DNA of 64,000 nucleotides from an uncultured Alphaproteobacteria bacterium (GCA_964276015.1 CAXYDO010000014.1:27199-91198), one strand, 5' to 3'; positions 10,728 to 53,427 are shown, numbered from the stretch's first letter. Made by a program: numbers and translations. Notes: generated by a model not told the origin, from the letters alone.

Positions 10728-10816
10728 GGGTTTTCCCGAAATTGCCTTAATCCGGCCCCGTCATGGCCGTGTTGCCGCAGCACCGTAGCTTCAGCTCTGT
10801 TTGGGAGGAGAAGACG

Positions 10817-35822: not shown

Positions 35823-36029
35823 ATGCCCAAGATGAAGACAAAGTCGTCTGCCAAGAAGCGATTCAGCTTTACGGCATCCGGCAAAATCAAAATGAAACCA
35901 GCCGGCATGCGTCACGGCTTACGCAAGCGCTCTCAGTCGATGAAGCGCAAGGCGCGTAAGATTGGCCTCATCGCGAAATCCGATGAGAAGATCCTGAAGC
36001 CGATGATGCCCTACCAGAGAAAGGGCTAG
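35823..36029 (+). CDS. rpmI: 50S ribosomal protein L35
   Basis: [14 protein letters not shown]... 68 aa. Conserved. Confidence 0.9.
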
Positions 36030-36033
36030 CTCC

Positions 36034-36399: not shown

Positions 36400-36442
36400 A
36401 ACGGGACCCAACAGGGTCTTCAGGAAGAGCTATCGGTGAATC

Positions 36443-37531
36443 ATGACCGCGCCTGACACGTCCGAGTTGCAGGAGTCTCTGCTCGCCGATGTGGCCTCGG
36501 CGCACAGCCTCGATACGCTCGAGGCTGTGCGTGTGTCAGCGCTCGGCAAGAAGGGTGCGATCACGGCTCAAATGAAGGGCCTTGGCCAGCTCGACGGGGA
36601 CGCCCGCAAGGAAGCTGGCCAGGCGCTCAACCGGGTCAAGGATGCGGTCCAGGAAGCGATCACCGCCCGTCAGGCGGCGCTCGATTCCGTCGCGCTGGAA
36701 AATCGGCTCGCCCATGAGACGGTGGATATCACCCTGCCGCCGCGCCAGCGCTACGAAGGTCATCTGCACCCGGTCAGCCAGGTCACCGAAGAGTGCATCG
36801 CGATCTTCGGTGAGATGGGCTTTACCGTCGCTGAAGGTCCGGATATCGAGGATGATTTCCATAACTTCACCGCGCTGAACATTCCGCCCGAACACCCCGC
36901 GCGGCAGATGCACGACACTTTTTATCTGAACGCCGAAGAGGGCCGTCCGGCCCCGGTGTTGCGGACCCATACGTCGCCGGTTCAGATCCGTACGATGGAA
37001 ACCTCAAAGCCGCCGATCCGGATCATCGCGCCAGGGCGCACCTATCGAAGTGATTCCGACGCGACCCACACGCCGATGTTCCATCAGATTGAAGCGCTGG
37101 TCGTCGACGAGACGACCCATATGGGCCACCTCAAGGGCTGCATTATTGATTTCTGCCGGGCGTTCTTCGATATCCCCGATTTGCCCGTGCGTTTCCGCCC
37201 GAGCCATTTCCCGTTCACCGAACCTTCCATGGAGGTCGATATCGGTTGTTCCCGTGAAGGCGGCGAATTGCGGATCGGTAATTTCGGCGAAGGTGCGGAT
37301 AACTGGCTGGAAATTATGGGTTCGGGGATGGTGCACCCTAAGGTGCTCGAATATGGCGGGATCGACCCGACCCGGTATCAGGGTTTTGCCTTCGGCATGG
37401 GGATCGACCGGATCGCGATGCTGAAATACGGCATTCCTGATCTGCGCACGTTCTTTGACGCTGACATCCGATGGCTCAAGCATTACGGCTTCGTGCCGCT
37501 GGCTGTGCCGTCGATGGTTCGCGGTTTGTAG
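36443..37531 (+). CDS. pheS: phenylalanine--tRNA ligase alpha subunit
   Basis: 362 aa with class II motifs ([22 protein letters not shown]). Confidence 0.95.
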
Positions 37532-37540
37532 GGGGCGAGC

Positions 37541-39934
37541 ATGAAGTTCACCCTCGGTTGGCTGAAAGACCATCTCGACACCGAAGCCTCGGTGGGCGAG
37601 ATCGTTGAAACCCTGATTCAAATTGGTCTGGAGGTCGACTCGGTCGACGACCCGGCCGCCGAATTGTCGGCATTCCGGGTCGCCCATGTGATCGCCGCTG
37701 AGCCCCATCCTGACGCCGACCGCTTGCAGGTCTGCACTGTCGACACCGGCGAGGGCACCGTCCAGGTCGTATGTGGGGCTCCCAATGCGCGCGCCGGCAT
37801 GAATGGCGTGTTCGCTCCGGTAGGCACCTGGGTGCCGGGCATCGAGGTTGAGCTAAAAGCAGCAAAAATCCGCGGCGTTGAATCCAGCGGCATGCTCGTT
37901 TCCGAACACGAAATGGGCCTGTCCGACGAACATGATGGCATTATCGAGCTGCCCGAAGATGCGCCGCTCGGGGTACCGTTCGCCGAAATTCTCGGCATCG
38001 ATGACCCGGTCATCGATATTGAACTAACCCCGAACCGGCCTGATTGTACCGGCGTGCGCGGCATTGCCCGCGACCTGGCAGCGGCTGGTCTGGGACAGTT
38101 TAAACCGTTTGAGGCAGCCCCGGTCGGGGGCGGCTATGCCAGCCCGGTGAACTGGGCGATCGCCGGGGACGGCAATGCTTGTTCTTACGTGGTGGGACGT
38201 CATTTCCGCGGCGTGACCAACGGCCCGTCGCCGAAATGGCTGCAGGACCGCCTGCGCGCGGTTGGGCTGCGGCCGATCTCTGCGCTGGTCGATGTGACCA
38301 ATTATGTCTCGCTTGATCTGGGGCGCCCGCTCCATGTTTTCGATACGGCCAAGCTGAAGAACGACACCCTAACCATGCGTCGCGCGAAAGACGGCGAGGA
38401 TTTCATGGCGCTGGTCGAGCGGGCGTGTACCCTCGACAGTGAAATGACGGTGATCGGTGACGGCGATACGGTCGAAGCTCTGGCCGGTGTCATGGGTGGT
38501 CTCGAATCCAGCTGCACCGAGGAAACAACTGACGTGTTCCTCGAAGTCGCACTGTTCGATCCGGTCTCGGTGGCCACCACCGGGCGCAAGCTGCAAATGG
38601 AATCGGACGCCCGTTATCGTTTCGAACGCGGCGTCGATCCGGAATCTGCTGAATGGGGCGCCGAAGTTGCCGCCCGTCTGATCATCGAGTTCTGCGGCGG
38701 CGAGACCAGCGAACCGGTGCGCGCCGGCGAGATGCCCAATTGGCAGCGCAGCGTCGAGTTGCGCGCCGACCGGGTCGCGACCCTGGGTGGGGTTGAAGTT
38801 CCCCATGCGCGCCAGGCCAAGATTCTCGAAGGTCTCGGGTTTGGGGTTTCGCCAAGTGATGCCGGCGTGTCCGCCGACGTGCCATCCTGGCGGCCTGATA
38901 TTGGTGGCGAAGCTGACCTGGTGGAAGAAATTACCCGCATTCACGGCTTTGACCGGATTGCACCGGTATCCCTGGATCGGGATTCTGCGCTTCCCGCTGT
39001 GGCGATCACTCCGGAACAACGGCGTGCGGGCAATGTCCGTCGCGCCCTGGCCGCCGAGGGTCTCGACGAGGCGGTCACCTGGTCCTTCATGGGGCGGGCC
39101 CAGGCCGAGCTGTTCGGTGAGGTCCCCGAAACCATGATGCTGGCTAACCCGATTTCAAGCGAGCTCGACGCCATGCGGCCCTCGATCCTGGGCAATCTTC
39201 TGCTCGCGGCCGGTCGTAACGCCGATCGTGGTTTTGGCGACCTCGGTCTGTTCGAACTCGGACCAGCCTATCGCGACACCAGCCTCGACGGACAGCAGCT
39301 CGTGGCAGCCGGCGTGCGCCGGGGAAATGTGGATCTGGCCCATTGGTCGGGCCAGGCACGCAGTGCCGATGCGCTTGATGCAAAATCAGACGCGCTCGCT
39401 GCGATCGAAGCCGCCGGTGCGCCGGCGGGGAATGTTCAGGTCAGCCGCGACGCGCCAGACTGGTATCACCCGGGTCGCTCGGGGGCGCTGCGCCTCGGCA
39501 AGAACGTGCTCGGCTATTTCGGCGAAATCCATCCCGCCGTGTTGCGCGGTCACGATGTGCGCGGCCAGGCGGTGGGCTTTGAGGTCTTCCTCGATAATTT
39601 GCCGCCACGCAAGAATAAGGGCTCGGCCCGTCCGGCGCTGCATCTGGAAAGCCTACAGCCGGTGCGCCGTGACTTTGCGTTCCTGGTGAACACGGATGTT
39701 CAGGCCGGTGATTTGCTGCGCGCCGCCCGCGGAGCCGAACGAGAAGCCATCACGGATGTCACGTTGTTTGATGTCTATGAAGGCAATAATGTTGAAGACG
39801 GCAAGAAGTCCCTGGCCATCCAGGTGACCCTGCAGCCGACCGAAGCCACATTCACCGATGCCGAGATCGAGGATATCTCTGCAAAGATCGTCGCAGCTGT
39901 CGAAAAAGTGACCGGCGGGACACTTCGGGGTTAA
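37541..39934 (+). CDS. pheT: phenylalanine--tRNA ligase beta subunit
   Basis: 797 aa with tRNA-binding, B3/B4, B5 and FDX-ACB domains. It immediately follows pheS. Confidence 0.95.
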   Translation: MKFTLGWLKDHLDTEASVGEIVETLIQIGLEVDSVDDPAAELSAFRVAHVIAAEPHPDADRLQVCTVDTGEGTVQVVCGAPNARAGMNGVFAPVGTWVPGIEVELKAAKIRGVESSGMLVSEHEMGLSDEHDGIIELPEDAPLGVPFAEILGIDDPVIDIELTPNRPDCTGVRGIARDLAAAGLGQFKPFEAAPVGGGYASPVNWAIAGDGNACSYVVGRHFRGVTNGPSPKWLQDRLRAVGLRPISALVDVTNYVSLDLGRPLHVFDTAKLKNDTLTMRRAKDGEDFMALVERACTLDSEMTVIGDGDTVEALAGVMGGLESSCTEETTDVFLEVALFDPVSVATTGRKLQMESDARYRFERGVDPESAEWGAEVAARLIIEFCGGETSEPVRAGEMPNWQRSVELRADRVATLGGVEVPHARQAKILEGLGFGVSPSDAGVSADVPSWRPDIGGEADLVEEITRIHGFDRIAPVSLDRDSALPAVAITPEQRRAGNVRRALAAEGLDEAVTWSFMGRAQAELFGEVPETMMLANPISSELDAMRPSILGNLLLAAGRNADRGFGDLGLFELGPAYRDTSLDGQQLVAAGVRRGNVDLAHWSGQARSADALDAKSDALAAIEAAGAPAGNVQVSRDAPDWYHPGRSGALRLGKNVLGYFGEIHPAVLRGHDVRGQAVGFEVFLDNLPPRKNKGSARPALHLESLQPVRRDFAFLVNTDVQAGDLLRAARGAEREAITDVTLFDVYEGNNVEDGKKSLAIQVTLQPTEATFTDAEIEDISAKIVAAVEKVTGGTLRG

Positions 39935-40198
39935 TGTCGGAGTTGATGTTGCCCACTATACGTTGTGGACAACGTGGTGACCGGGAGGATGGATCGTGCG
40001 CGGTCTTGTTACAGTCGGATCGAAAACGACTAAACAGTTGAATTATAAAACTAAAACAAGATTATGCGTGTGTCATAATTCGGGAGTAAGATGCTTTTCA
40101 GAAACCTCGATAATCCGAATATGACAGTTATCCCCATATCTCACAGACTGTATGTCAGTGGCTATGTCCCCCAACGTTCGAGCTTTGTTCCCCTCTAG

Positions 40199-42001
40199 AT
40201 GACCGATCTTTCCCATATCCGAAATTTCTCCATCGTGGCCCATATCGACCACGGGAAATCGACGCTGGCCGACCGCCTGATCCAGGAGTGCGGCGGGCTG
40301 ACCGAGCGCGAGATGTCCGAGCAGGTGCTCGACAGTATGGAGCTCGAGCGCGAGCGCGGGATTACGATCAAGGCCCAGACCGTGCGGCTGACCTACAAGG
40401 CCAAGGACGGCAAGACCTATCATTTGAACCTGATGGACACGCCCGGGCATGTGGACTTCTCCTACGAAGTCTCCCGCTCGCTGGCGGCCTGTGAAGGTGC
40501 GCTGCTGGTGGTTGATGCCAGCCAGGGGGTCGAGGCCCAGACGTTGGCGAATGCCTATCTGGCCATCGACGCCGGTCTGGAGATGGTGCCGGTCCTTAAC
40601 AAAATTGATCTGCCCGCCGCCGAGCCGGAACGCATCCGTCAGCAGATCGAGGATGTGATCGGGATCGATGCCTCGGAAGCTCTGATGATTTCGGCCAAGA
40701 CCGGCATCGGCATCCCCGACGTTCTCGAAGCACTGGTGACAGAACTGCCCGCGCCTGAAGGCGATGCGGATGGCGAATTACAGGCCCTGCTCGTGGATAG
40801 CTGGTACGATCCCTATCTGGGTGTGGTGGCGCTGATTCGGGTGAAGCATGGCGTCATGAAGAAGGGCCAGAAGATCCGCATGATGTCGTCGGGCCACTCA
40901 TATTCCGTGGATCGGGTCGGTGTGTTTACCCCGGCGCGGACCGAGACGGGTATTCTGGGCCCGGGGGAAATCGGGTTTATCACGGCGTCGATCAAGACCG
41001 TGTCTGATTGCAATGTGGGCGATACCGTCACCGATGATCGCCTGCCGTCGGCTGAGCCGCTGCCGGGGTTCAAGCCTTCTGTGCCGGTGGTGTTTTCTTC
41101 CCTGTATCCGGCAGACACCTCGGAATACGAAGATTTGCGCGCCGCGCTCGAACGCCTGCATCTCAATGATGCGAGTTTCGAATTTGAAGCGGAAAGCTCG
41201 GCGGCGCTCGGGATGGGTTTTCGCTGTGGGTTCCTTGGCCTGCTGCATATGGAAATCATCCAGCAGCGGCTCGAACGGGAATTCGACCTTGAGATCATCG
41301 CGACGGCACCTTCGGTCGTCTATCATATCTCCCTGACCGACGGGTCCGAGATCGAGCTCCATAACCCGACCGACTATCCCGACGTGACCCGGATCGCGGA
41401 GATCGAAGAGCCTTGGATCAAGGCGTCGATCATGGTGCCGGATGAATACCTCGGCTCGGTCCTGCAGCTTTGCACGGAGCGGCGCGGTGAGCAGCTCGAC
41501 CTGACTTATGTGGGCGGGCGTGCGATGGCGGTGTATCGCCTGCCGCTCAACGAGGTCGTGTTCGATTTCTATGACCGGCTGAAATCAATCAGCCGGGGCT
41601 ATGCGAGCTTTGATTACGAGCTCGATGAGTACCGTATTGGCAATCTGGTCAAAGTCGACATCATGGTGAACAGCGAGGTGGTCGAGGCCCTCTCCATGGT
41701 GGTGCATCGCGACCAGGCCGAGGCCCGTGGCCGCCATCTGTGTGAGCGGCTCAAGGATCTCGTCCCCCGCCAGCTCTTCAAGGTGGCGCTCCAGGCCGCG
41801 ATCGGCGGCAAAGTGATCGCCCGGGAGACCGTTGGCGCCATGCGCAAGGACGTGACGTCGAAATGCTACGGCGGTGACATTTCCCGCAAGCGCAAGCTGC
41901 TGGATAAGCAGAAGGCGGGCAAAAAGAAGATGCGCGCCTACGGCAATGTGGAAATTCCGCAATCGGCCTTTATTCAGGCCCTGCGGATGGGTGACGAATA
42001 G
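40199..42001 (+). CDS. lepA: elongation factor 4
   Basis: 600 aa. The G domain ([29 protein letters not shown]) and the LepA C-terminal domain are conserved. Confidence 0.95.
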
Positions 42002-42025
42002 GGCGTTTCCCGCGTCGCGACTGTC

Positions 42026-42337
42026 TTACTTGAACATGCCTTCTCGACGGACCCGCTTGCGGGTCAGGCGGACCAGCAGAATGCCCGGGATGCCGAGCAC
42101 CATGGTGGCCGGCCAGAGCAAGATCGTCACGACCACCGGATCCCAGAGCGCGGGCAGGACGTAACGTTGGGTGACCGCCTGCATCAGGTTCAGGCTGCCA
42201 TTGTCGAGGCGGAACCAGAGTTCCCCGGCTGAGATCAGGATGAGCGTGCCCGCGTCAATCGATGTCAGAATATCGCGCGCAAAAAGTACGACCGATGCGA
42301 TCACGAGAATCCAGCCTATGACACGCAAGATAATCAT
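42026..42337 (-). CDS. small integral membrane protein, hypothetical (103 aa)
   Basis: Only the C-terminal part of the track ORF 42026..42730 is plausible. The ATG is at 42337 (MIILRVIGWILVIASVV...) with 3 TM helices. The upstream part of that ORF is the antisense of the tRNA. Confidence 0.4.
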   Translation of the reverse strand: MIILRVIGWILVIASVVLFARDILTSIDAGTLILISAGELWFRLDNGSLNLMQAVTQRYVLPALWDPVVVTILLWPATMVLGIPGILLVRLTRKRVRREGMFK

Positions 42338-42497
42338 CGACTTATAAGCCCCATGTTCTGGTTTAGCGGTTTTGGTACGTAGGTATACTAAACCGCAGAC
42401 CGGGTGTCGGACACAAGGCTTACCCTGATGGGAATTGGTTAAAACACCAGCAGTTGCCAGTACAGGCCTTGTTCGGCTATGCACTCTTCGACGTGCC

Positions 42498-42587
42498 GGA
42501 GGGGTGGCCGAGTGGCTGAAGGCGCACGCTTGGAAAGCGTGTATGCGGGTGACCGTATCGAGGGTTCGAATCCCTCTCCCTCCGCCA
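42498..42587 (+). tRNA. tRNA-Ser (anticodon GGA)
   Basis: GGAGGGGTGGCCGAGTGGCTGAAGGCGCACGCTTGGAAAGCGTG-[long variable arm]-GAGGGTTCGAATCCCTCTCCCTCCGCCA. The 7-bp acceptor stem, anticodon loop TTGGAAA, long extra arm, T-loop TTCGAAT and encoded CCA all fit. Confidence 0.9.
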
Positions 42588-42633
42588 ACATTATCATGCA
42601 TTGTGAGATTCATCGCTTCGGCCAACTGGCCAT
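42576..42633. repeat. Left 58-bp direct repeat (attL core) covering the last 12 nt of tRNA-Ser plus 46 nt downstream
   Basis: CTCCCTCCGCCAA[C]ATTATCATGCATTGTGAGATTCATCGC[T]TCGGCCAACTGGCCAT recurs at 49437..49494 with 56/58 identity. Confidence 0.8.
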
Positions 42634-42775
42634 GTAGTTCGAGTTCGAACTGCCCGCGCTGTTGCGCTGGATGGGCTATGATACGGTCGACCAGTCCACG
42701 CAGCGCTGCGGAAGCTTCATCGCGTACCATTGGATCTGCATGAAGGGCTTCTGACAGGTTTGCGATCTTTTGCTT

Positions 42776-43114
42776 TTAGAGGTCGGCCGCATTGGGGTGC
42801 CACTCGATCGTTGTCGGTTCCTCGTCGTTGAACACCACAAGGTCCGAGAGCCTTGCCTCGAGTTTCCGTAATTTCTCGCCGATAGCTCCGAGCTCGTTGA
42901 CGGTACCTTCGGCGATGGCGTCGACGAGACGCGCAATCTGTCGTTCAAGGTTTGCCCTTTCCTTGGCGTGCGTGTTGCGTCGGCGACGTGCGTCCTTTTG
43001 CAGTCTTTGCAGTTCCGCGTGGTACTCGTCCACAAACGTTTGAACGAGTTCGGGCTCCATCAGCTTGTCTTTCAGCCCACCCAGCACACGGTCCTCTATG
43101 TCTTTGGCAGGCAT
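42776..43114 (-). pseudogene. Fragment of a large serine recombinase (coiled-coil region only)
   Basis: FVDEYHAELQRLQKDA...ERQIARLVDAIAEG...WHPNAADL matches the central coiled-coil segment of recombinase-family proteins. The catalytic N-terminus and C-terminus are missing. Confidence 0.4.
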
Positions 43115-43136
43115 GGTTCGGTTGTTGGTGCAGGTG

Positions 43137-43595
43137 CCCTTCTGGCGCGCGGTCGATTACGGAGGCGAGGTGCTCGAAATTTTCGCGACGAAACGCGGGG
43201 ATCGTAGGGCTGCCCTTCAGTTTCTGAAGCGCGCGATGAAGCGGTATGGACATCCGAAAGTGGTTGTCACCGACCGGCTTCGGTCATACCGGGCAGCGAT
43301 GAATGTGATCGGGAATGCCGCCGATCAGGAATACGGCCGCTGGCTGAACAACCGGGCGGAAAACTCACATCAGCCGTTTCGAAGACGGGAAGGGGCGATG
43401 TCGAAATTCAGGGGTGTAAAAACCCTGCAGAAATTCGCCGCCGTTCATGGTTCAACCTTCAACCATTTTAATCTCGACCGCCACCTCAACAGCCGCTCCG
43501 TCTTCAAACAGAACCGCTCCTCCGCGCTGGCCGAGTGGCGTCAACTCCTGGCGCTCGCTAATTCGAGTCTTTTATGGCTTTTAAAAAAAACATGA
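43137..43595 (+). mobile_element. IS6-family (IS26-like) transposase, 5'-truncated remnant (C-terminal ~150 aa)
   Basis: WRAVDYGGEVLEIFATKRGDRRAALQFLKRAMKRYGHPKVVVTDRLRSYRAAMNVIG...GRWLNNRAENSHQPFRRREGAMSKFRGVKTLQKFAAVHGSTFNHFNLDRHL is collinear with IS26 Tnp from about residue 95 onward. Confidence 0.6.
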
Positions 43596-43738
43596 GGTGA
43601 GGGAACAATTTGCTCCCTCACGTCTCAAAACTACGATAAATTTTTATTTGATAGTCGTTCTCAAAACCAAAGATTATCTTTATACGTATAGATCCACATG
43701 TAAATTTGGGTGCTATTTAACAACAAACAGGGAATATC

Positions 43739-44455
43739 ATGGATAAGTTAATTATGCTTAACCCCGCCGATTATGTTGGGGTAAGTTTTTGGATCATTTC
43801 AGCTGCAATGGTCGCCGCTACGTTTTTCTTCTGGGTTGAGCGTGATAGAGCGGTTGGCAAATGGAAAACGTCCCTTACGGTCGCCGCGATGGTAACTGGT
43901 ATTGCGGCCATTCATTATATGTATATGCGCCAAGGTTGGGTCTACACCGGTGAAAGTCCAACGGTCCTTCGGTACGTAGACTGGTTGCTAACTGTCCCGC
44001 TACAGATTGTTGAGTTCTACCTCATCCTGGCTGCAATGACGGCCGTTGCGACCGGATTGTTTTGGCGGCTACTCGTCGCCTCTTTGGTGATGCTGATTGC
44101 TGGTTATCTCGGTGAGGTAAATAGCGCCAATCCAACGGCACTGTGGGGATTCTTCATCGTTGGTATGGCTGGCTGGATTTACATCCTGTACGAAATCTTC
44201 GCAGGCGAAGCGAGCCGCATTAATGCAAGTGAAGGCACTGTCGCTGGCCAGAAGGCTTTCGGGGCACTGCGTTTGATAGTCACCGTCGGGTGGGCTATTT
44301 ACCCGCTCGGCTACATCTACGGATATGTCGGTGGCGGCGATGTCGCTGGGCTTAATCTGATCTACAACTTGGCTGATTTTGTGAACAAAATCGCCTTTGG
44401 AGTAGTGATCTGGGCTGCTGCAACGTCTGATAGCGCCAGCAAACCGGCTTCTTAA
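43739..44455 (+). CDS. proteorhodopsin (light-driven proton pump, DTE motif, predicted blue-tuned)
   Basis: 238 aa with 7 TM helices. RYVDWLLTVPLQIVEF carries the D97/T101/E108 equivalents with Gln at the position-105 equivalent. The Schiff-base Lys is in NLADFVNKIAFG. The protein is collinear with SAR86 GPR/BPR. No signal peptide is present. Confidence 0.9.
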   Translation: MDKLIMLNPADYVGVSFWIISAAMVAATFFFWVERDRAVGKWKTSLTVAAMVTGIAAIHYMYMRQGWVYTGESPTVLRYVDWLLTVPLQIVEFYLILAAMTAVATGLFWRLLVASLVMLIAGYLGEVNSANPTALWGFFIVGMAGWIYILYEIFAGEASRINASEGTVAGQKAFGALRLIVTVGWAIYPLGYIYGYVGGGDVAGLNLIYNLADFVNKIAFGVVIWAAATSDSASKPAS

Positions 44456-44471
44456 TAGTCTGGTAAATGTC

Positions 44472-44512
44472 AAGGTATGTCCGACAGCTGTCGGACATAC
44501 CTTACTTTTTTT
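44472..44512 (+). terminator. rho-independent terminator after the rhodopsin gene
   Basis: Perfect palindrome AAGGTATGTCCGACAG/CTGTCGGACATACCTT (44472..44503) followed by ACTTTTTTT. Confidence 0.7.
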
Positions 44513-44525
44513 AAGGGGGACCGTC

Positions 44526-44930
44526 TTGCACAGGCAATTTGCCAAGAGCTTTCGCGGGGCTACGGAGCAAGCCGTGCCGCGAGTTGGTACAACACAGAGA
44601 TCCGAAGAAGCGTTGGAAGAAGCGATAATAGCGCTCTTGCCCACGAAGAAAAGTTCGCTCTTTAAGGTAGCGCATTCTCATTTTAGCCAATTTGGTAAAT
44701 TACTACGTGGTCGTACCGCATGGGCGGTAAGTGAAGCCGTAACGCTAAGCCCGGCCTGCGCGCAAAATTGGGCCGCGCGGTTACAGGAACAATTGAACAT
44801 CTGCCGCCAAGAATGCGATGTTCTTCCGGTTCAGATTCAATCCGCATTGGCACCATTAGTAAACTATCTCGAGCACGCTACAACGTCCGTTCGAGCACGC
44901 GCGATGGATACTGCGCGTATTTGCGTTTGA
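44526..44930 (+). CDS. hypothetical protein (134 aa) in the slot normally occupied by crtE
   Basis: TTG-start ORF whose TGA overlaps the crtI ATG (TGATG). It shares the island's low GC. No recognisable family. Confidence 0.3.
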   Translation: MHRQFAKSFRGATEQAVPRVGTTQRSEEALEEAIIALLPTKKSSLFKVAHSHFSQFGKLLRGRTAWAVSEAVTLSPACAQNWAARLQEQLNICRQECDVLPVQIQSALAPLVNYLEHATTSVRARAMDTARICV

Positions 44931-46471
44931 TGGAGGCAACCAGAATTTCCGATATTACGCTCGACGCAGAAAACAGCGCGGGACGGGTCATCGTCATTGG
45001 TGGCGGTTTTGGGGGCATGGCTGCAGCTTTGCGTGCACGAGCGATGGGGTTCTCGGTAACTCTTGTTGAGCGGCTCGATCATTTAGGTGGTCGCGCTCAA
45101 GTTTTTGAGCGCGACGGCTTTAAACATGACGCCGGTCCGACTGTTATCACAGCGCCATTTTTGTTTGAAGAATTGTACCAATTATTCGGCGAGAACCTGA
45201 AAGATCACCTCACCTTCACACCACTAGAGCCTTGGTATCGTTACTATTTCCAAGACGGTCGAAGCTTAGACTATAGCGGTGATCAAGACCGAATGGCGGC
45301 CGAAATTAGCAAATTTTGTCCCGCAGACGTGGCCGGTTACGCCGCTCTAGTGGCCGCATCCCGAAAGATTTTTGACGTTGGCTTCACCCAATTAGCCCAT
45401 CGCCCATTCATCAATTTTGGCTCGATGGTTAGACAAATACCGGCGTTGCTTCGTCTCCGCGCAGACCGCTCGGTGAGCGGCCTAGTCGCCAAGCATATCC
45501 GTCACCCTTTATTGCGGCGCGCCTTCTCGATTCAGCCACTTTTGGTTGGTGGCAACCCTTTTACAACAACCTCTATTTATTCTCTAATCCATTACCTTGA
45601 GAGAAAATGGGGGGTGTCTTTTTGCATGGGGGGAACCGGTGCTCTGGTTTCGTCACTTGTGGATTTAATGGCTCGACAAGGTATCGAAATTTTCACTGGC
45701 GTCGACGTTGAGCGCATCGCTATATCAGGGAATAGTGCTAGCGGAGTCATTCTTGCGGATGGCCGCAATTTTCCTGCAGATCACGTCATTTGTAACGCAG
45801 ATCCACCAAACGTCTACCGCACACTATTGTCTGATGGGGGGCGCGTTGCGCGGCGTCGCAAACGCTTGCTTCCCGAGTCGATGACGAAATATTCTATGGG
45901 GCTTTATGTGCTTTTTTTTGGTACCCGTCGGAAATACCCGGAGGTAGCGCATCATACTGTCTGGCTGGGTCAAAGATTTAAGGAATTACTTGCTGACATA
46001 TTTGACCGCGGTCAGTTGTCAGAAGACTTTTCTCTCTACATCCACCGGCCAACTGCGACCGACCCTAGTTTCGCCCCGGAGGGATGTGACAGTTTTTATG
46101 TACTTTGCCCCGTGCCTAATTTGCAGACCGACCTAAATTGGCCGGTAGTCGGTGAAGACCTTCGCAACCGCATCGTTGAAGCTCTTTCGGATACTATATT
46201 ACCCGATTTAAAAAGTCATATCACAAGCGAATTCTGGATGGATCCCAATGATTTTCGAAATGATTACCGCTCTCATCACGGCGCAGGATTCTCAATCGCT
46301 CCAATTTTGCGCCAATCAGCATGGTTCCGTTATCATAACCGCGATCCACATATCGGAAATCTCTACTTCGTTGGAGCCGGCACCCACCCAGGCGCTGGCC
46401 TGCCCGGGGTTGTAAGCTCCGCCAAGGTGGTCGAAACACTGCTCCGCGAAAAATCTATCGCTACCGTCTGA
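44930..46471 (+). CDS. crtI: phytoene desaturase
   Basis: FAD fold RVIVIGGGFGGMAAALR and the CrtI-typical GGNPFTTTSIYSLIHYLE and YFVGAGTHPGAGLPGV motifs. The start was set to the ATG at 44930 (MEATRISD). Confidence 0.9.
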   Translation: MEATRISDITLDAENSAGRVIVIGGGFGGMAAALRARAMGFSVTLVERLDHLGGRAQVFERDGFKHDAGPTVITAPFLFEELYQLFGENLKDHLTFTPLEPWYRYYFQDGRSLDYSGDQDRMAAEISKFCPADVAGYAALVAASRKIFDVGFTQLAHRPFINFGSMVRQIPALLRLRADRSVSGLVAKHIRHPLLRRAFSIQPLLVGGNPFTTTSIYSLIHYLERKWGVSFCMGGTGALVSSLVDLMARQGIEIFTGVDVERIAISGNSASGVILADGRNFPADHVICNADPPNVYRTLLSDGGRVARRRKRLLPESMTKYSMGLYVLFFGTRRKYPEVAHHTVWLGQRFKELLADIFDRGQLSEDFSLYIHRPTATDPSFAPEGCDSFYVLCPVPNLQTDLNWPVVGEDLRNRIVEALSDTILPDLKSHITSEFWMDPNDFRNDYRSHHGAGFSIAPILRQSAWFRYHNRDPHIGNLYFVGAGTHPGAGLPGVVSSAKVVETLLREKSIATV

Positions 46472-46485
46472 GGAGAAATTCGATC

Positions 46486-47421
46486 ATGGGCTGCACCTTC
46501 GGTTCGAAATCAGCTGAAACGGCGGCGAATGAGATTCTCGCAGCGCATGGTAAGTCTTTCTACTGGGCGCGGCGCTTTTTAGGGCCCGTAGCGGCAAGAC
46601 AAGCGACCTTACTCTACGCCTTTTGCCGACGACTTGACGATATCGCGGATGCCGATAGTCCTGGCGGACTAGAACGTTTAAAAGCGATTGATGCGGCCCT
46701 CGCCGTGGGCGTAGCTGACGGCGATGATCACGTCGCCACATTTCTTTCTCTCAGCAGCGAAATCAATCTTCCCGTGAACGCGGCTCGCGATTTAATCGCC
46801 GGGTTAATTTTTGACCAGGGCGAAGTGCTTTTGGCTGATGAAGATGCTCTGATCGTTTACGCGTACCAGGTAGCAGGGACCGTTGGGCTAATGATGTCGC
46901 CAATCCTGGGGCGTCACGACCCCGTAGCCGACGCTTTCGCTATCGACTTGGGGATAGCAATGCAGCTCACTAATATAGCCCGTGATGTCGCCGAAGACGC
47001 TGACTTAGGTCGACGCTATTTACCAGCATCTTGGTGTGGCCCGATCAGCCCGTCAGAGATTCGCCTGGCGAGCGCTTCCCCTCTATCTCCTGGCAGAGAT
47101 GAAGTCGCGGTGGCCGTAGCCAAGGTTCTGGTTCAAGCTGAAACTTTCTACACCTCTGGTCTTGCAGGGTTGGCCTATTTGCCGATCCGCAATGATCTTG
47201 CGATTGGCATTGCGGCAACCGTTTACCAAGCCATTGGCCACCGTTTACGCCGACGCCGCTATGCCTGGTGGAAAAAGCGACAGGTAGTTGGTGTTAGCGG
47301 AAAAATTCTGGCTACTGGGGCAAGCCTGCCGCGGCTCTTTAGCCGCCGTGCGCCAGGCCCTCATGATGAACGGCTTCACCGAGCCTTGAAGGGAATCGCG
47401 AGTGTCGATGCCTTGCACTGA
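46486..47421 (+). CDS. crtB: phytoene synthase
   Basis: Squalene/phytoene synthase motifs: YAFCRRLDDIAD, YQVAGTVGLMM and DLGIAMQLTNIARDV. Confidence 0.85.
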   Translation: MGCTFGSKSAETAANEILAAHGKSFYWARRFLGPVAARQATLLYAFCRRLDDIADADSPGGLERLKAIDAALAVGVADGDDHVATFLSLSSEINLPVNAARDLIAGLIFDQGEVLLADEDALIVYAYQVAGTVGLMMSPILGRHDPVADAFAIDLGIAMQLTNIARDVAEDADLGRRYLPASWCGPISPSEIRLASASPLSPGRDEVAVAVAKVLVQAETFYTSGLAGLAYLPIRNDLAIGIAATVYQAIGHRLRRRRYAWWKKRQVVGVSGKILATGASLPRLFSRRAPGPHDERLHRALKGIASVDALH

Positions 47422-48541
47422 ACAGGCAGCCTATAGAACTGCCGTGATCGGTGGCGGTTGCGCGGGGCTGACACTAGCCCGCCACTTAACCGCTGCTGGA
47501 GTTTCGCCGCTGGCAGTAATTGATCCCGGCGCCAGCCGGCCGGATCATATCTGGGGTTACTGGGATGACGGCGGAGCTAATTTAAGTCTTCCGCGGCCGC
47601 TTTCTTCCGCCTCCTGGCGGCGCTGGGCGGTAATCACGGAACGTCAGAAAGTTGTGTTGAACGGCGATCGCTTCTGCTACAGGGCTCTCTCATCACAGCA
47701 TTATGAAGAGAGTTTGCGCTCGGATATATCGGGCAGTTCGGGAACGTTTGTTAACGCAACTGCCAAGAGTTGCACGCCAACGAAAGACGGTTTTCGACTT
47801 ACCTTGGACAATGATTTTGAACTGTCTGCCGAAGCGGTTTTTGATAGCCGTCCACCAAAACCACCAGTCGGCGCCTTATTACAGCATTTTGGCGGCTGGC
47901 ATGTGCGGATGGAGCGACCAGTTTTTGATACAAAAACTGCGATTTTGATGGATTTTAGAGTTTCCCAGGATGAGGGAATACACTTTATCTACCTGTTACC
48001 CTTTAATGCCGAACATGCCTTGGTTGAATCTACAGTGTTCTCTCCGACGCCCAAGTCGTCGGAGTGGTATGATAGTCAAATCAAAGCCTACTTGTCCGAG
48101 CATTACTCAGGTGTACAAGCCACCATCGAGGGTCGCGAGGCCGGCGTCATCCCGCTTGCGCCGCTAGTTTCTCCGAATTCTTTTGGCACCGCCATTGGGC
48201 TCCGCGCCGCAACGCATAGAGCCTCCAGCGGCTACGCTTTCTCACAAATTCAGATACAGGCGGCAGACTTAGCGTTAGACCTGATAGCGGATCGGCCTGC
48301 GTGTCCACGGCCCGGCTGTGACAGCTTCGAAGCTTGGATGGACAACGTCTTCCTCTCGGTCCTCCGCCGGTCCCCCGACCGCGCCCCGGAAATTTTTCTC
48401 CGCGCGGCGCGTGCCCTTACCGGGGACCAATTCGCTACTTTCATGCGTGGTCAAAGCGGCTGGCCCACTCGCCTCCGGCTAATGTCTGGCCTCCCCCTCG
48501 TATTATTCCTCAGCGCAGCTTTGGACAGAGGGTCGCGATGA
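47402..48541 (+). CDS. crtY: lycopene beta-cyclase
   Basis: N-terminal FAD motif VIGGGCAGLTLA and the CrtY-like FIYLLPF region. It overlaps crtB by 20 nt. Its stop overlaps the blh ATG (ATGA). Confidence 0.8.
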   Translation: MSMPCTEQAAYRTAVIGGGCAGLTLARHLTAAGVSPLAVIDPGASRPDHIWGYWDDGGANLSLPRPLSSASWRRWAVITERQKVVLNGDRFCYRALSSQHYEESLRSDISGSSGTFVNATAKSCTPTKDGFRLTLDNDFELSAEAVFDSRPPKPPVGALLQHFGGWHVRMERPVFDTKTAILMDFRVSQDEGIHFIYLLPFNAEHALVESTVFSPTPKSSEWYDSQIKAYLSEHYSGVQATIEGREAGVIPLAPLVSPNSFGTAIGLRAATHRASSGYAFSQIQIQAADLALDLIADRPACPRPGCDSFEAWMDNVFLSVLRRSPDRAPEIFLRAARALTGDQFATFMRGQSGWPTRLRLMSGLPLVLFLSAALDRGSR

Positions 48542-49342
48542 GCTGGGAGGTATTAATTCCAATGTTGATGGTTTTGTTAGTCGGGTTTCCCCATGGCGCT
48601 GCTGACGGAGTGTTAGCAGTCAATCTAGCACGTCGAGGGACCATCGGGCTCGGCGCATTTTTTGCACTTTACGGAGTAATCACTCTGTCCGCGGCGGCCT
48701 TTTGGTTGTGGCTGCCTGTGCTGAGTTTAATCAGTTTTCTGCTGCTGTCGGTGGTTCATTTTGGGACCCTCGATAGCAGGCACGACCGCCTTGTGGGCCG
48801 GCGCACATTACGTACCCTCGTCCATGGAAGCACCCTTATTTGTATAATTCCGTGGGCGCATGAGAGGGAAGTGACTGAAATCTTCGGGCTTTTAATCAGG
48901 TTCGGAGGTCGTGTGGCTGGTCCAAATCTTGGCTGCCGCCGCTCTGGCATGGGCTATCGGGGTAGTGTGGCTCGGCCTGGCCTTTGGCCCGGCCGGTCAA
49001 CGTGCTGCCGGAGAATTGATTGTAGTAGCAGCCGTTTTAATAATTTTGCCGCCACTCTGGGGGTTCGCTTTATATTTCTGCACCGTTCACTCTTGGCGCC
49101 ATATGAACGCAATTGTGGCCACGCTGGCCCCCTTCGGCCCAGCAGCATTTCGTTTGGTGGCTTTGCTCACACTGGTCAGTTTTCTGCTAGTCATTGCCGG
49201 GGCGCTCGTCTTGCCGGCAGTAGATATCGACAGCGGGGTTATCCGGGCGACCTTTATTTCGCTGGCAGCCTTAACTGTGCCTCATTTTCTCCTGATTGAT
49301 GTTTACCGCGTTTTGTCACGTCTTAGAGCTACTAGTCGATAA
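48538..49342 (+). pseudogene. blh: beta-carotene 15,15'-dioxygenase (Brp/Blh family), split by a +1 frameshift near 48880-48915
   Basis: The N-terminal half (MSWEVLIPMLMVLLVGFPHGAADG...SVVHFGTLD) is in frame 1 from 48538. The C-terminal half (WLVQILAAAALAWAIG...FCTVHSWRHM...LTVPHFLL) is in frame 2 (track ORF 48911..49342). Conserved His motifs are split across the two frames. Confidence 0.55.
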
Positions 49343-49436
49343 GAGCCGTAATGGACCGCCACCATCCCCTCGCCGGGCAGCCGGTTCTGCGACTACGCGA
49401 TTGTCTGATGTATCCACTGGCGTTGCCGACAGCACC

Positions 49437-49494
49437 CTCCCTCCGCCAAGATTATCATGCATTGTGAGATTCATCGCCTCGGCCAACTGGCCAT
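49437..49494. repeat. Right 58-bp direct repeat (attR core)
   Basis: Copy of the tRNA-Ser 3' end plus downstream sequence. See 42576..42633. Confidence 0.8.
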
Positions 49495-49624
49495 TTCGGT
49501 GCCCTGCGGCATGGTCGACGGTCTCCCCGTCGGGCTGATGATCGTCGGCAAACGCTACGAAGAAGCCACCGTTTTGCGGGTTGCAGAGGCGTTCGAACAA
49601 TCGGGCGATTGGCACAGCATGTAA
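49481..49624 (+). pseudogene. 3'-terminal remnant of an amidase-signature gene (~45 codons)
   Basis: The frame reads ...GQLAISVPCGMVDGLPVGLMIVGKRYEEATVLRVAEAFEQSGDWHSM*, a typical amidase C-terminus (compare the intact amidase at 60716..62119). It starts inside the attR repeat. Confidence 0.35.
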
Positions 49625-49669: not shown

Positions 49670-51541
49670 TTATTCCGTGAATTGATCTTCCGGTACATCG
49701 TCGAACGAAGCGTAGTTGAGGCCGTATAGGCGCGCGTAGAGCCCGCCTTGGGCGACCAGCGCTGCGTGGGCCCCGGTTTCGACGATGTGGCCGTTCTGCA
49801 GGACGATAATTCGATCGGCGCCGCGTACGGTAGCCAGCCGGTGGGCGATGACGATGCCGGTGCGGCCCTCAAGCAAGCGTTTGAGGGCCGTTTGAATTTG
49901 GCGCTCGGTCTGGCTGTCGATATTAGCTGTCGCTTCGTCGAGTATCAGAATCTTGGCGTCCGCCACCAAGGCGCGAGCAAAACTAAGCAACTGACGCTGG
50001 CCGAGGGACAGGTTGCGGGCCTGCTCTTCGAGAATTGTGTCGTAGCCGTTGGCGAGCAGGGTGATGAAATCATGAGCACCAACCACGCGCGCAGCACGTT
50101 CGACATCCTCTCGGGTCGCCCAGACGGTCCGGTAGCGGATGTTCTCGAATATGGTTCCGGTGAACAGGAAAGGGTCCTGCAAGACCATGGCGATATGCTT
50201 GCCCAGTGATGCCTTGGCGTAGTCGCGCACGTCGTGACCGTCGATCAGCACCGCGCCTTCATTGACCTCGTAAAACCGATGCAGCAGTGACGTAATACTG
50301 GTTTTCCCCGAGCCGGTTGGGCCGACTAGGGCCACAGTTTCGCCCGGCGCCACCACAAAATTTATATTCTGCAACACAGGCTGGTTCTCGACATAACGGA
50401 ACGTGACGTCGCGAAACTCGACCGATCCCTCAATGCTGTCGGGGTCGATGGCGTCGGGACCGTCGTCGATAGCCAGGGGGACGTCGAGAACTTCGAAGAT
50501 TCGTTTGCCTGACGCCATGGCCCGTTGCATCACGGAGTACTGGATGGTGAGCGAGCGGATCGGATCGAAAAACCGTTGCACGTAGAACAGGAAGGCGACC
50601 ATGACGCCGACATCAAGCGTACTATCGAGGACCTGGAGACCTCCGACCATGATCACGATCCCCATCGCGGCACCGGTAAGGGTGTCGACGATCGGCACCA
50701 TTACCTGGGCCATTTGAGCTGACTTCAGGTGAGCGCCGAGATTGTCCTGAACTTTCTCGTCGTAGAGATCGAAATTGACCGCCTCGCGTCGCATGCTCTG
50801 CACGGTCCGCACGGCACGAATCCCTTCGGCCAGGGCGCCATTGGCGCTGGAGTTGGTTTCGCGCGCGCGGCGGAATGCCACCCGCGCGCGTGGCAACCAG
50901 ATCATGCGGACAATGAACAAGGTCGGCACCACCGACAGGGTGAGGATGCCAAGTCCAAAATCCATCGTCAGCATGATGGCAACGATGCCAAACAGCAGTA
51001 CCAGATCGCCGAACGCGGTGATCGAGTTTTCGAGAAACTCCTGCAGTGAGTTCACGTCACCGGTGAGCCGCGACATCATGCGGCCGGTCTCGGTTTTGTC
51101 CATGAACGAAAGCGATACATTCTGCAGATGAGCGTACATGGCCTGGCGAAGATCGAAGATGACATGCTCGCCGGTTATCCCGATCAGACGGTCTTGCAGC
51201 CAGTTGGCGCCATAATTGACCGTAATGACGGCCGCGAACACCAAGACCACCAGAAATAGACCGGCAGCATCGCCATCGTTGGCCAAAATGACATTGTCGA
51301 TGCCGAACCGAATAATCAACGGTATGGCCAATTGGGCCGCGGTGACGACCAGGACGGCGGCGACCGCGAGCCAAACCTGTTTACGGTAGGGCTGCACATA
51401 GGTCATGAACCGGCGTACCACGCCCCCATCAAACAGCGCCCCGAACATCTCTTCGTCGAGACTGCTCTGCGAACCAACATAGGCCCGCGGCGGTCGTTCG
51501 CGCCCTGGCGGGTGCTTGGTGCCCTCAGTTTTCGTGGTCAT
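49670..51541 (-). CDS. ABC transporter ATP-binding/permease protein (type I exporter half-transporter)
   Basis: N-terminal 6-TM domain plus NBD (GPTGSGKTS, LSLGQRQLLSFARAL, ILILDEATA). Confidence 0.8.
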   Translation of the reverse strand: MTTKTEGTKHPPGRERPPRAYVGSQSSLDEEMFGALFDGGVVRRFMTYVQPYRKQVWLAVAAVLVVTAAQLAIPLIIRFGIDNVILANDGDAAGLFLVVLVFAAVITVNYGANWLQDRLIGITGEHVIFDLRQAMYAHLQNVSLSFMDKTETGRMMSRLTGDVNSLQEFLENSITAFGDLVLLFGIVAIMLTMDFGLGILTLSVVPTLFIVRMIWLPRARVAFRRARETNSSANGALAEGIRAVRTVQSMRREAVNFDLYDEKVQDNLGAHLKSAQMAQVMVPIVDTLTGAAMGIVIMVGGLQVLDSTLDVGVMVAFLFYVQRFFDPIRSLTIQYSVMQRAMASGKRIFEVLDVPLAIDDGPDAIDPDSIEGSVEFRDVTFRYVENQPVLQNINFVVAPGETVALVGPTGSGKTSITSLLHRFYEVNEGAVLIDGHDVRDYAKASLGKHIAMVLQDPFLFTGTIFENIRYRTVWATREDVERAARVVGAHDFITLLANGYDTILEEQARNLSLGQRQLLSFARALVADAKILILDEATANIDSQTERQIQTALKRLLEGRTGIVIAHRLATVRGADRIIVLQNGHIVETGAHAALVAQGGLYARLYGLNYASFDDVPEDQFTE

Positions 51542-53427
51542 TGCGCTGCCCCCTGAATGCTGGAGGGGTCGTCATCCAGTTCGTCGTCGAGACGGTTTTG
51601 TAAGGCATGGAGCTCGGCGTAGCGTCCGCCTTGAGCCACGAGGCTCTCATGTGTGCCCCGCTCAATGATTCGTCCGCCTTCGAGAAATATGATCTCGTCG
51701 GCATGGAGTAGGGTTCTCAGGCGGTGGGAAATAAAGATCGTTGCGCAGGATTGCATCGGCGCTTTCAGGAGCTCGCGGATCTGCTGCTCGGTACCAGCGT
51801 CGATCGCCGCAGTTGAATCATCGAGGATCAGCACCGCCGGATCGAGCATGGTGGTGCGGGCGATGGCGATGCGCTGCTTCTGCCCTCCCGACAGGGACAC
51901 GCCGCGTTCGCCGACCAGGGTGCTGTAGCCTCCCGGCAGGCTGCCGATGAACGTATCGATCTGCGCCAAAGAGGCCGCATTGGCGATGGACTCGTCTTCG
52001 GCCCATGGATCGCCATAGGCGATGTTGTTTTCTAGCGACGTCGTAAACAGGAACGGGTCCTGGGGGACCGTCAACACCTGGCGGCGGAGCGATTCCAAGG
52101 TGACATCGCGTACATCCTGACCATCCAGCGTAATGCGACCGTCCGTGCAATCGTAAAAGCGGGTTAGCAGATGGGCGATTGTCGATTTACCGCTGCCCGG
52201 CGGCCCAACAATCCCGAGCGACCGGCCACGGCGGACCTCGAACGAGACTCCATGCAGTGTTGGGAGGGCGTCATCGCCGTCATAGCCGAACGAGACATTT
52301 TCATAACGAACCAGGGAGTCCTTGATCTCCAACGGCTTTGCGCCGGGCCGGTCGGCGATCGTGGGCTCCAGATCGAGGACCGCAAACAGCCGGCGCCCGG
52401 TGGTCGAGGCCCGGGCGAACGAGTTCACCAATAACCCCAGTTGGCGGACTGGCGCTTGCAGGATCGTCATGAAGGTGAGGAATTCGGTTAAGTCGCCCAC
52501 GGTCAGACGCCCTTCGAGCACACGCAATCCGCCAACCCACAGAACAAGACCCATGGCGATGAAATAGGCGAAGGTCATGACCGTGGTCGACGCCACCCTG
52601 GTCTTGATGCGTCGGTCTGCAAGCGCCATCGCAGCGTCTGCCGCCTTCCCATACTTGGCGAGCTCATAGTTTTCGGCACCGAAAGCCCGTACCACCCGGA
52701 TACCTGTGAGGTTCTCATCCATGATCCGGCCGATGATCCCCATGCGCTCCTGCAAGGCCAGCCACAGAGACCGCAGTTTGAGTCGAGCCACGGCCGATTG
52801 CCAGGCGACGAACGGCACGAAGCTAAGACTCATGGCTCCGAGGAGCAGGTCGGCCGAGAGCAGTAGATAAGCGCCGGCACCGATCAGAATACTCAACAGG
52901 ACGAGGCGCACCAGGCCACTACTGACAAACATCCGTACGCCTTCCAGGTCGAGCATGCCGCGGGTGATCAGCTCTCCGGTATGAACCCGGTCGTGGAACG
53001 AAAAACTCAAACTTTGCAGCTTGTTGTAGAAGGCGAGCCGAAGATCGTAGGCCATCATATGGCCGACGGCTTCGCCCATATAATTGTGTATGAGGGTGAA
53101 CAAGCCGCGCATAATTGAGACGCCGAGTAGCAGCGCGGCAGTCTGGAACAATGCGGTGCGGGCTGCCGCTGCTGTGGCGTTCCCGGTGTCGAGTAGGCCC
53201 AGCGCGCCATCAACTGCACTGCCGAGAAGCGGTGGCACCGTGAGTTGGAACAGCGCTGCGATCACGGTTGCACCGACGGCGATGGCAACGCGTCCGCGAT
53301 AGCGTAGGCACAGTCGGATGATGCGCCACAATATCTGCGCGTCGTTACCTAACTGGCGATCGATATCGGAAGGCGAAGTCGTCAAGGGTTCATCCAGTTT
53401 AGAGTTCGGAAGCGACCTTAGTGGCAC
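51538..53427 (-). CDS. ABC transporter ATP-binding/permease protein (type I exporter half-transporter; partner of 49670..51541)
   Basis: TMD plus NBD (GPPGSGKST, LSGGQKQRIAIART, LILDDSTAA). It overlaps the downstream gene by 4 nt, suggesting a heterodimeric pair. Confidence 0.8.
   Translation of the reverse strand: MPLRSLPNSKLDEPLTTSPSDIDRQLGNDAQILWRIIRLCLRYRGRVAIAVGATVIAALFQLTVPPLLGSAVDGALGLLDTGNATAAAARTALFQTAALLLGVSIMRGLFTLIHNYMGEAVGHMMAYDLRLAFYNKLQSLSFSFHDRVHTGELITRGMLDLEGVRMFVSSGLVRLVLLSILIGAGAYLLLSADLLLGAMSLSFVPFVAWQSAVARLKLRSLWLALQERMGIIGRIMDENLTGIRVVRAFGAENYELAKYGKAADAAMALADRRIKTRVASTTVMTFAYFIAMGLVLWVGGLRVLEGRLTVGDLTEFLTFMTILQAPVRQLGLLVNSFARASTTGRRLFAVLDLEPTIADRPGAKPLEIKDSLVRYENVSFGYDGDDALPTLHGVSFEVRRGRSLGIVGPPGSGKSTIAHLLTRFYDCTDGRITLDGQDVRDVTLESLRRQVLTVPQDPFLFTTSLENNIAYGDPWAEDESIANAASLAQIDTFIGSLPGGYSTLVGERGVSLSGGQKQRIAIARTTMLDPAVLILDDSTAAIDAGTEQQIRELLKAPMQSCATIFISHRLRTLLHADEIIFLEGGRIIERGTHESLVAQGGRYAELHALQNRLDDELDDDPSSIQGAAQ

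Follow-up and report, generated by a model that had tools for sequence, protein, structure and literature searches.

Results

A proteorhodopsin island beside a serine tRNA gene

The DNA analysed here is a stretch of 64,000 nucleotides (hereafter the window; GCA_964276015.1, CAXYDO010000014.1:27199-91198) from an uncultured bacterium that looks like a marine Parvibaculales-like alphaproteobacterium. At positions 42498 to 49494 the window holds a tRNA-Ser(GGA) gene, a remnant of a large serine recombinase gene, a piece of an IS6-family transposase gene and a proteorhodopsin (PR) gene with a cluster of genes for retinal synthesis, all bracketed by two copies of a 58-nt direct repeat. A first-pass annotation, made from the sequence alone, had read this arrangement as a complete photosystem delivered by a single site-specific integration. 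We show here that the PR cluster was most likely acquired laterally and that the retinal pathway has since been broken. The locus itself is probably a decayed, composite genomic island that was built by serial integration and deletion at a tRNA-Ser(GGA) integration hot spot. The tRNA gene is complete and ends at 42587 as annotated, and Rfam gave no match besides it over the window. The features of the island are the following.

42498..42587, + strand: tRNA-Ser(GGA), intact (ARAGORN and Rfam agree), the integration target
42576..42633, + strand: left repeat copy, formed by the final 12 nt of the tRNA and 46 nt of the recombinase 3' coding end (on the - strand ...HGQLAEAMNLTMHDN)
42588..43155, - strand: C-terminal fragment of a large serine recombinase, corresponding to aa 332-530 of the 534-aa L040 protein (75% identity)
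43143..43553, + strand: internal fragment of an IS6-family transposase, aa ~97-232 of 231-236 (DDE_Tnp_IS240, E=6e-25, profile positions 20-134)
43554..43738, + strand: junction and PR upstream region, homology to the intact cluster clear from ~43626 and weaker from ~43577
43739..44455, + strand: PR, 238 aa, intact (Bac_rhodopsin in Pfam, E=2e-46)
44472..44503, + strand: terminator-like intrinsic hairpin after PR, 14-bp stem followed by a T run (z = -3.6)
44526..44930, + strand: remnant of crtE (geranylgeranyl diphosphate (GGPP) synthase), annotated as orfX, with an in-frame 624-nt internal deletion (junction ~44775)
44930..46471, + strand: crtI (phytoene desaturase), 513 aa, length as in intact clusters
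46486..47421, + strand: crtB (phytoene synthase), 311 aa
47408..48541, + strand: crtY (lycopene cyclase), 377 aa from ATG (379 aa from GTG at 47402), its stop overlapping the blh start (ATGA)
48538..49342, + strand: blh (beta-carotene 15,15'-dioxygenase), disrupted, Pfam BCD positions 2-115 and 135-265 lying in different frames
49343..49436, + strand: spacer of 94 nt, whose last 9-11 nt (CCGACAGCACC) resemble an IS6 right terminus, a likeness that is statistically insecure
49437..49494, + strand: right repeat copy, made up like the left one of 12 nt from the tRNA 3' end and 46 nt from the recombinase 3' end

The opsin is intact and the retinal pathway is decayed

The order of a PR gene followed by a terminator was found as annotated. 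The best PDB match of the opsin is the blue proteorhodopsin 4jq6 (E=3e-83). The DTE motif is present (D..T..E in RYVDWLLTVPLQIVEF), the residue for spectral tuning is Gln as in the blue type, and the His in AAIHYMYM and the Schiff-base Lys in NLADFVNK are both there. By these residues it is a blue-type DTE proton-pump homologue, and pumping is predicted. Downstream of it crtI, crtB and crtY are intact, with lengths and domains as in intact clusters, and this part of the annotated orfX-crtI-crtB-crtY-blh series holds. The two ends of the series do not. What had been taken as a separate reading frame, orfX, is an in-frame fusion of the first ~83 and the last ~59 codons of crtE; the 624 nt lost compared to intact copies encode residues ~84-291, including both DDxxD motifs, and the same deletion is found in a Fram Strait metagenome contig (L003). 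blh is not a whole gene, since an extra C at 48897, compared to a 98%-identical cluster on contig L025, causes a +1 frameshift. No other crtE or blh exists in the window, and exact look-up of the window's blh and crtY products found no second copy. Judged by its genes, the PR photosystem is incomplete, with crtE and blh broken and the opsin intact. With crtE deleted and blh frameshifted, the cell would now have to obtain GGPP and retinal by another route for light-driven proton pumping.

The PR block is of foreign origin

Sliding GC and tetranucleotide analyses bear out the lower-GC block of the first-pass annotation. GC content drops to 0.51-0.53 over 43-47 kb (0.53 for the PR block) compared to 0.604 in the rest of the window, and GC at third codon positions (GC3) is 0.49-0.56 in the PR cluster genes compared to 0.64-0.77 in pheS, pheT, lepA, the ABC genes and rsmJ. 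Tetranucleotide distance exceeds two standard deviations above the mean only in 3-kb intervals starting at 42-45 kb, which cover 42-48 kb. By this measure the PR block lies 0.33 from the host but 0.21 from the flank of contig L026, which has a GC content of 0.52. The PR protein has hundreds of close relatives. On contigs L025-L033 PR proteins of 96-97% identity are encoded in a PR-crtE-crtI-crtB-crtY-blh cluster within a different gene neighbourhood, and gene order and content of the window's block are as in the intact relatives L025-L036. Nucleotide identity to the L025-L033 clusters is 93-94% over 43626-44775 and 96-98% over 44755-49072; overall it amounts to 94-98% for L025 and 93-97% for L026-L033. 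Recent acquisition of the PR block by lateral transfer is strongly supported by these comparisons, because a cluster of 93-98% nucleotide identity sits in a different context and the composition is foreign. The transfer was most likely directed into the lineage of the window. The lateral acquisition proposed by the first-pass annotation is thereby sustained, all the more as relatives hold other cargo at the site, and the variant in which all relatives would share one arrangement of uniform composition is not what we find.

A metagenome scan with the Blh C-terminus for the right boundary of the block in a donor context gave no match. Searches for a plasmid, phage or IMG/VR origin of the island or the recombinase yielded no meaningful match, just distant ones to crtI and IS6. 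On the 32-kb contig L025 the PR cluster (6947-11685) ends inside blh (179 aa); homology stops at window position 49072 and DNA of 28.5% GC follows, which reflects either another insertion into blh or a chimeric contig. The PR gene region (43545-44253) is 93.5-97% identical to L003, L057 and L001, compared to 98-100% in the core flanks. Allele exchange is a possible cause of an opsin region more diverse than its housekeeping neighbours, as are, for L003, read errors.

A recombinase clade linked to tRNA-Ser genes

The annotated large serine recombinase fragment was recovered between the repeats. It comprises 199 codons, and its minus-strand frame, from ~43155, continues into the antisense of the tRNA gene. 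An in-frame TAA at 42776-42778 is specific for this strain (TAC in L003, L057, L043 and L055). The fragment is devoid of the catalytic domain, the Recombinase domain and most of the zinc ribbon, and gives no Pfam match to any of the three. No other tyrosine or serine recombinase was found within the window. Because its integrase is a fragment, the island is no longer mobile.

Two peptide patterns taken from the conserved C-terminal part of the recombinase, free of tRNA sequence, were used to scan metagenomes and retrieved 30 loci. A tRNA-Ser gene on the opposite strand overlaps the recombinase 3' end in 21 of them (11 GGA, 10 GCT). Among the other nine, the contig runs out next to the recombinase match in at least five (L049, L051, L058, L064, L065), L068 and L069 are just distantly related, and a short piece of the recombinase gene is present in L054 and in L063, the latter with an adjoining IS6. 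In a separate set, the homologues recovered with the window's fragment itself, all that can be traced to the end of the coding frame finish in the antisense of a tRNA gene or of a tRNA 3' fragment, with the shared C-terminal ending ...QFELELHGQLA.A.NL..H.N.GGGRGIRTL.... A full-length open frame of 536-642 codons is kept in 9/30 loci. Both full-length members tested with Pfam, L040 (534 aa) and L050 (529 aa), contain Resolvase, Recombinase and Zn_ribbon_recom, and full-length family members also have a coiled-coil C-terminal region. In five loci (L040 6490-10921, L041 1541-5969, L043 149-4603, L045 and L047) two tyrosine recombinase genes precede the serine integrase (S-Int) gene. In this three-gene module tyrosine recombinases of 589 and 353 aa are followed by the serine recombinase, which is always the gene abutting tRNA-Ser.

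The window's recombinase fragment is 98.6% identical at the nucleotide level to L043 and 97.9% to L055, compared to only 80% and 85% for lepA of the same loci. This discrepancy indicates that the end of the element, as judged from these identities, has spread between species recently.

The tRNA-Ser site is a hot spot with IS6 activity

The housekeeping genes pheS, pheT and lepA and a gene for a small membrane protein flank the island, with rsmJ further to the right. The closest species representatives are alphaproteobacterial and Parvibaculaceae metagenome-assembled genomes, and their LepA proteins share 70-82% identity with that of the window. In a contig scan that required the small membrane protein gene to adjoin the tRNA gene, the order lepA-small membrane protein-tRNA-Ser(GGA) was kept in 14 relatives. 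None of these 14 has the window's 46 nt or its right flank after the tRNA gene; the sequence there is unrelated. Two contigs share the window's own arrangement. Contig L003 corresponds to 35238-45232 at 99.3% identity with an identical arrangement, and L057 derives from a sister strain (LepA 99.3%, 98.3% nucleotide identity across 10.6 kb) in which PR likewise adjoins the recombinase fragment. Since both show the arrangement independently, the left half of the island is real and common to at least three strains.

In other relatives the same site holds other cargo. In L021 (2-430) and L022 (3-1166), from a relative with a LepA of 89% identity, a gene for a bacterial nitric oxide synthase oxygenase lies beside a longer recombinase remnant at tRNA-Ser, and L050 has an intact recombinase with metabolic cargo behind lepA and the small membrane protein gene. 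In L038 (GCA_039980135.1, 1107-5888) three direct IS6 copies occupy the tRNA-Ser site, with genes for a dienelactone hydrolase and a DUF4915 protein between them, and in L059 (1161-9964) three direct copies are separated by TRAP transporter, GntR and cupin genes. The copies within these arrays are 76-90% identical, and the arrays look like IS26-style accretion. Because relatives hold such different cargo (nitric oxide synthase, TRAP transporter, IS6 arrays), the tRNA-Ser site is, by comparison of these loci, a hypervariable hot spot with apparently active IS6.

The IS6 identity of the window's transposase fragment stands, with 93% identity to full-length 231-aa relatives. The description as 5'-truncated does not, since both ends are cut. 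Its borders are TGGCG(C)GCG-type microhomology joins within the transposase gene, not IS ends. Terminal inverted repeats and an 8-bp target duplication are absent at the fragment, judged against the reference ends GGCACTGTCAG.../...CTGACAGCACC of L037, L038 and L059. An imperfect 13-nt direct repeat (CTYCTGGCGCKCG) brackets the fragment at 43139-43151 and 43545-43557. L057 is without exactly the IS6 piece, by deletion between the 13-nt copies (L057 698-710). Between the IS6 fragment and PR, in the upstream region where the other lineage is divergent, a perfect hairpin with an 8-bp stem (GTGAGGGA...TCCCTCAC, 43597-43621) was scored as a minus-strand terminator.

The 58-nt repeat carries the end of the element

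A scan of the window with shuffled controls confirmed the annotated repeat: 42576-42633 and 49437-49494 are identical at 56 of 58 positions. With up to three mismatches allowed, the 58-mer occurs nowhere else in the 64-kb window, and the number expected from shuffles is zero; it is not a dispersed multi-copy repeat. By itself the 12-nt tRNA part is not significant, whereas the whole 58-mer is. The other 46/58 nt are recombinase coding sequence, and that part of the repeat therefore belongs to the element. In a canonical attR, chromosomal flank comes directly behind the displaced tRNA end. Here the displaced tRNA 3' tail (CTCCCTCCGCCA, 49437-49448) is followed by element sequence instead, and the right copy breaks off after 46 nt of this element-internal sequence against a 5'-truncated amidase gene. 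The copies differ at 49450 and 49478. The C at 49478 of the right copy is also present in other alleles of the family (L052, L042), and the left copy is the same allele as in L003, L057, L043 and L055. The view of the repeats as textbook attL/attR has thus to be given up, as most of the repeat is recombinase coding sequence and the right copy is another allele that ends at an amidase deletion junction. Joins of a tRNA fragment with a recombinase 3' end in the absence of the tRNA body recur in L020 (20-nt tail) and in L023/L024.

The 94-nt spacer and the 77-nt left junction gave no match among the relatives' sequences compared. With the IS ends of Sulfitobacter and of L038/L059 as reference, 49426-49436 was a lead for an IS6 right terminus. 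On this reading the PR block would have interrupted a single IS6 copy whose right terminus lies at 49436. The idea was rejected, as a window-wide gapped scan gave equal or better chance scores elsewhere; it is a weak lead only.

Right flank and side observations

Beyond the right repeat the annotated amidase remnant and ABC exporter genes were both found.

49490..49624, + strand: 3' remnant of an amidase-signature gene, the last ~44 codons and the stop, matching aa 463-499 of the 521-aa amidase 3a1i (E=3e-10)
49670..53427, - strand: a pair of ABC-B type exporter genes with a composition like that of the host (GC3 0.71-0.73)

The amidase remnant is read in the frame of 49496 and starts at about 49490, within the final bases of the repeat. 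In no relative examined do ABC exporter genes lie beside tRNA-Ser.

Parvibaculum-type relatives (L010-L019) carry a conserved motif, ccattttccttcagattcaaacacttacaattatgtcag, directly past tRNA-Ser, in the ~40 nt behind the gene. The motif is unrelated to the window flank and might represent a terminator or another att site. Far from the island, ~93 nt at window positions 7259-7352 match two intergenic stretches of L059 (11039-11132 and 19377-19471) at 76-79% identity, without an Rfam match, and may be a dispersed intergenic repeat.

Discussion

It is well known that tDNA islands can occupy one and the same tRNA site in succession, and such a history probably also accounts for the locus described here. 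An integrative element inserted at the tRNA-Ser 3' end. The family of this element is marked by a large serine recombinase gene at the tRNA-proximal end, often behind two tyrosine recombinase genes. At least two integrations may have followed each other, the newer element shifting the older end (12-nt tRNA tail plus recombinase 3' end) downstream. Deletions would then have cut the older copy to a 58-nt stub fused to the amidase remnant and reduced the recombinase genes of the newer element to the 199-codon fragment fused to an internal IS6 piece. The 5.8-kb PR-crtE-crtI-crtB-crtY-blh block stems from a lineage of ~52% GC with an intact cluster. Recombinase/IS6 debris now borders it on one side and the stub on the other, and it might have come as cargo of an element or through IS6 activity. 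Later, crtE was lost by in-frame deletion and blh was frameshifted, while PR, crtI, crtB and crtY stayed intact. For the right repeat copy we lean slightly towards its being the stub of a second element, left by serial integration and subsequent deletions. We infer this, rather than observe it, because no complete element with both ends was recovered; the att core and crossover could consequently not be located.

Several further observations weigh against this history. Among ~40 loci of relatives with lepA-small membrane protein-tRNA-Ser or the recombinase, the amidase/ABC flank adjoins the tRNA gene in none and no empty site was found, which leaves the annotated return of the chromosome past the right repeat unsupported. 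The right junction (blh-spacer-repeat-amidase) is backed by the window alone: no independent contig spanning 45.2-49.5 kb of this strain was found and contig L005 begins inside the right repeat. The displaced tRNA piece is 12 nt long here compared to 20 nt in L020, and its left edge may itself be a rearrangement breakpoint. No displaced tRNA fragment of at least 11 nt was found at a far end within 3-10 kb in L040, L041 and L050. Recognition of the tRNA could be the work of the adjacent tyrosine recombinases instead of the serine recombinase. Finally, the blh frameshift is known from one assembly only and could be a sequencing error.

The strongest alternative is capture of the PR block by IS6, with the tRNA-targeting element not involved in PR delivery. 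An IS6 copy already present in the recombinase remnant would have received the block in the form of an IS26-like translocatable unit or cointegrate, and most IS copies would have been deleted later. The setting is suggestive: on its left side the PR block comes within ~25-75 nt of the IS6 fragment, cargo modules at the same locus in L038 and L059 are set apart by two to three direct IS6 copies, IS6 occurs beside family recombinases in L040, L041, L020 and L063, and the 9-11-nt terminus-like motif (49426-49436) abuts the right repeat. However, both junctions of the IS6 fragment are microhomology joins inside the transposase gene rather than IS ends, there is neither an 8-bp target duplication nor an intact inverted repeat, the terminus-like motif is not significant in the window-wide scan, and IS6 is missing from the surroundings of the other lineage's intact cluster. 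As the window is without IS ends or target duplications, delivery by IS6 is not demonstrated, and we regard it as a credible but unlikely route.

A single site-specific integration, in which the 3' end of tRNA-Ser provided a 58-bp attB for a PR element and the repeats are attL and attR of one event, would explain why the 58-mer occurs in the window just twice, at the two borders of the island, why an integrase remnant adjoins the tRNA gene and why the DNA in between is compositionally foreign. It is hard to reconcile with the make-up of the repeat. As 46 of its 58 nt are coding sequence of the element's own recombinase and relatives have unrelated sequence after the tRNA gene, attB would already have needed a recombinase stub. 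A truncated gene follows the right copy, the two copies are different alleles, and serine recombinases need no long identity. We therefore consider one integration event improbable. Homologous recombination of the Campbell type is more improbable still. Single-crossover integration of a circle sharing the tRNA/recombinase junction, mediated by RecA, would yield direct repeats of the shared segment of 58 nt or more, and near-identical recombinase ends do circulate among species; yet 58 nt is a short substrate, the edges of the repeat meet a truncated amidase on the right and an unrelated spacer on the left, so that extra deletions would be required anyway, and for the circle there is no evidence. 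Least likely of all is an assembly artefact, a chimeric join through the 58-nt repeat at the right junction of an island that is not truly bounded: short-read contigs do come to an end at the tRNA (L004), the IS6 edge (L002) or a point within the right repeat (L005), and the 45.2-49.5 kb part lacks a second contig, but the right copy carries its own two substitutions with unique sequence on either side, two independent contigs (L003, L057) confirm the left half and the source contig is 151 kb long.

Serial integration and deletion thus stays our preferred account of this locus, and the recombinase family allows a wider, more tentative proposal. A coherent clade of serine recombinases, alone or behind two tyrosine recombinases, may target the 3' ends of tRNA-Ser genes (GGA, GCT), with the attachment site within the recombinase gene's own 3' end. 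Such elements would move between marine alphaproteobacterial species and give rise to a hot spot at which cargo, the PR photosystem for example, is then rearranged by IS6 arrays.

Islands linked to tRNA genes, serial occupation of tRNA sites, PR clusters and the lateral spread of PR are all long established. Lateral PR acquisition is in itself not new; unusual is the clarity of the record at this locus, with the same cluster in two lineages at 93-98% nucleotide identity, a hypervariable tRNA-Ser recipient site and early decay of the retinal pathway with the opsin intact. The decay bears on whether a newly acquired PR stays a full photosystem or shrinks to an opsin that depends on scavenged retinal. 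The tRNA-Ser-linked recombinase clade is the more novel by-product and may matter more than the PR transfer. It speaks to an open point in the literature, whether serine integrases ever specialise on tRNA genes, and offers candidate integrases with a conserved, predictable target.

The PR-crtEIBY-blh photosystem cluster and its lateral transfer have reportedly been described by Sabehi in 2005, Frigaard in 2006, and McCarren and DeLong in 2007. The block in the window shares with these clusters the gene order, a blue-type DTE PR and transfer between lineages; in contrast, this copy has lost crtE and carries a frameshifted blh, and its transfer is recent. Harmer and Hall are said to have described pseudo-compound transposons and translocatable units of IS26 and the IS6 family. 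The direct IS6 arrays that separate cargo in L038 and L059 are similar to such units, whereas the window keeps an internal IS6 fragment without ends or target duplications. Tycheposons, of which 27/937 have a large serine recombinase (Hackl et al., 10.1101/2020.12.28.424599), and marine tRNA cargo islands are alike in that cargo elements pile up at a specific tRNA gene, with partial tRNA copies and hypervariable islands. The resemblance is a general one, however, as no replication module or hallmark genes are seen here, the host belongs to the Alphaproteobacteria and IS6 arrays figure prominently.

The signature of Islander-type tDNA islands has been described (PMC4383910). The locus agrees with it in the intact tRNA gene, the adjoining integrase remnant, the foreign DNA and the displaced tRNA 3' end downstream. 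It departs from it in having a large serine recombinase, not a tyrosine integrase, at the tRNA-proximal end and a repeat that reaches 46 nt into the recombinase gene. Examined for the Islander signature, the locus has the intact tRNA and the displaced 3' fragment, but the integrase is a non-functional fragment and no empty site was found.

Full-length members of the recombinase clade, with Resolvase, Recombinase and zinc-ribbon domains and the coiled-coil C-terminal region, are alike to large serine integrases of the phiC31, Bxb1 and A118 type. For S-Ints known so far, tRNA genes are not an established target; in contrast to these, the 3' end of the gene in this clade overlaps the tRNA-Ser gene. 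The module of two tyrosine recombinases and one serine integrase resembles neither the classic "recombinase in trio" of three tyrosine enzymes nor known serine-integrase modules. Mageeney et al. found 14/297 S-Int elements at t(m)RNA genes by computation and stated that "experimental proof will be required" (PMC7192596). Taken on their gene arrangement, the 21 tRNA-Ser-linked loci would make the clade described here a clear case of a tRNA-linked S-Int.

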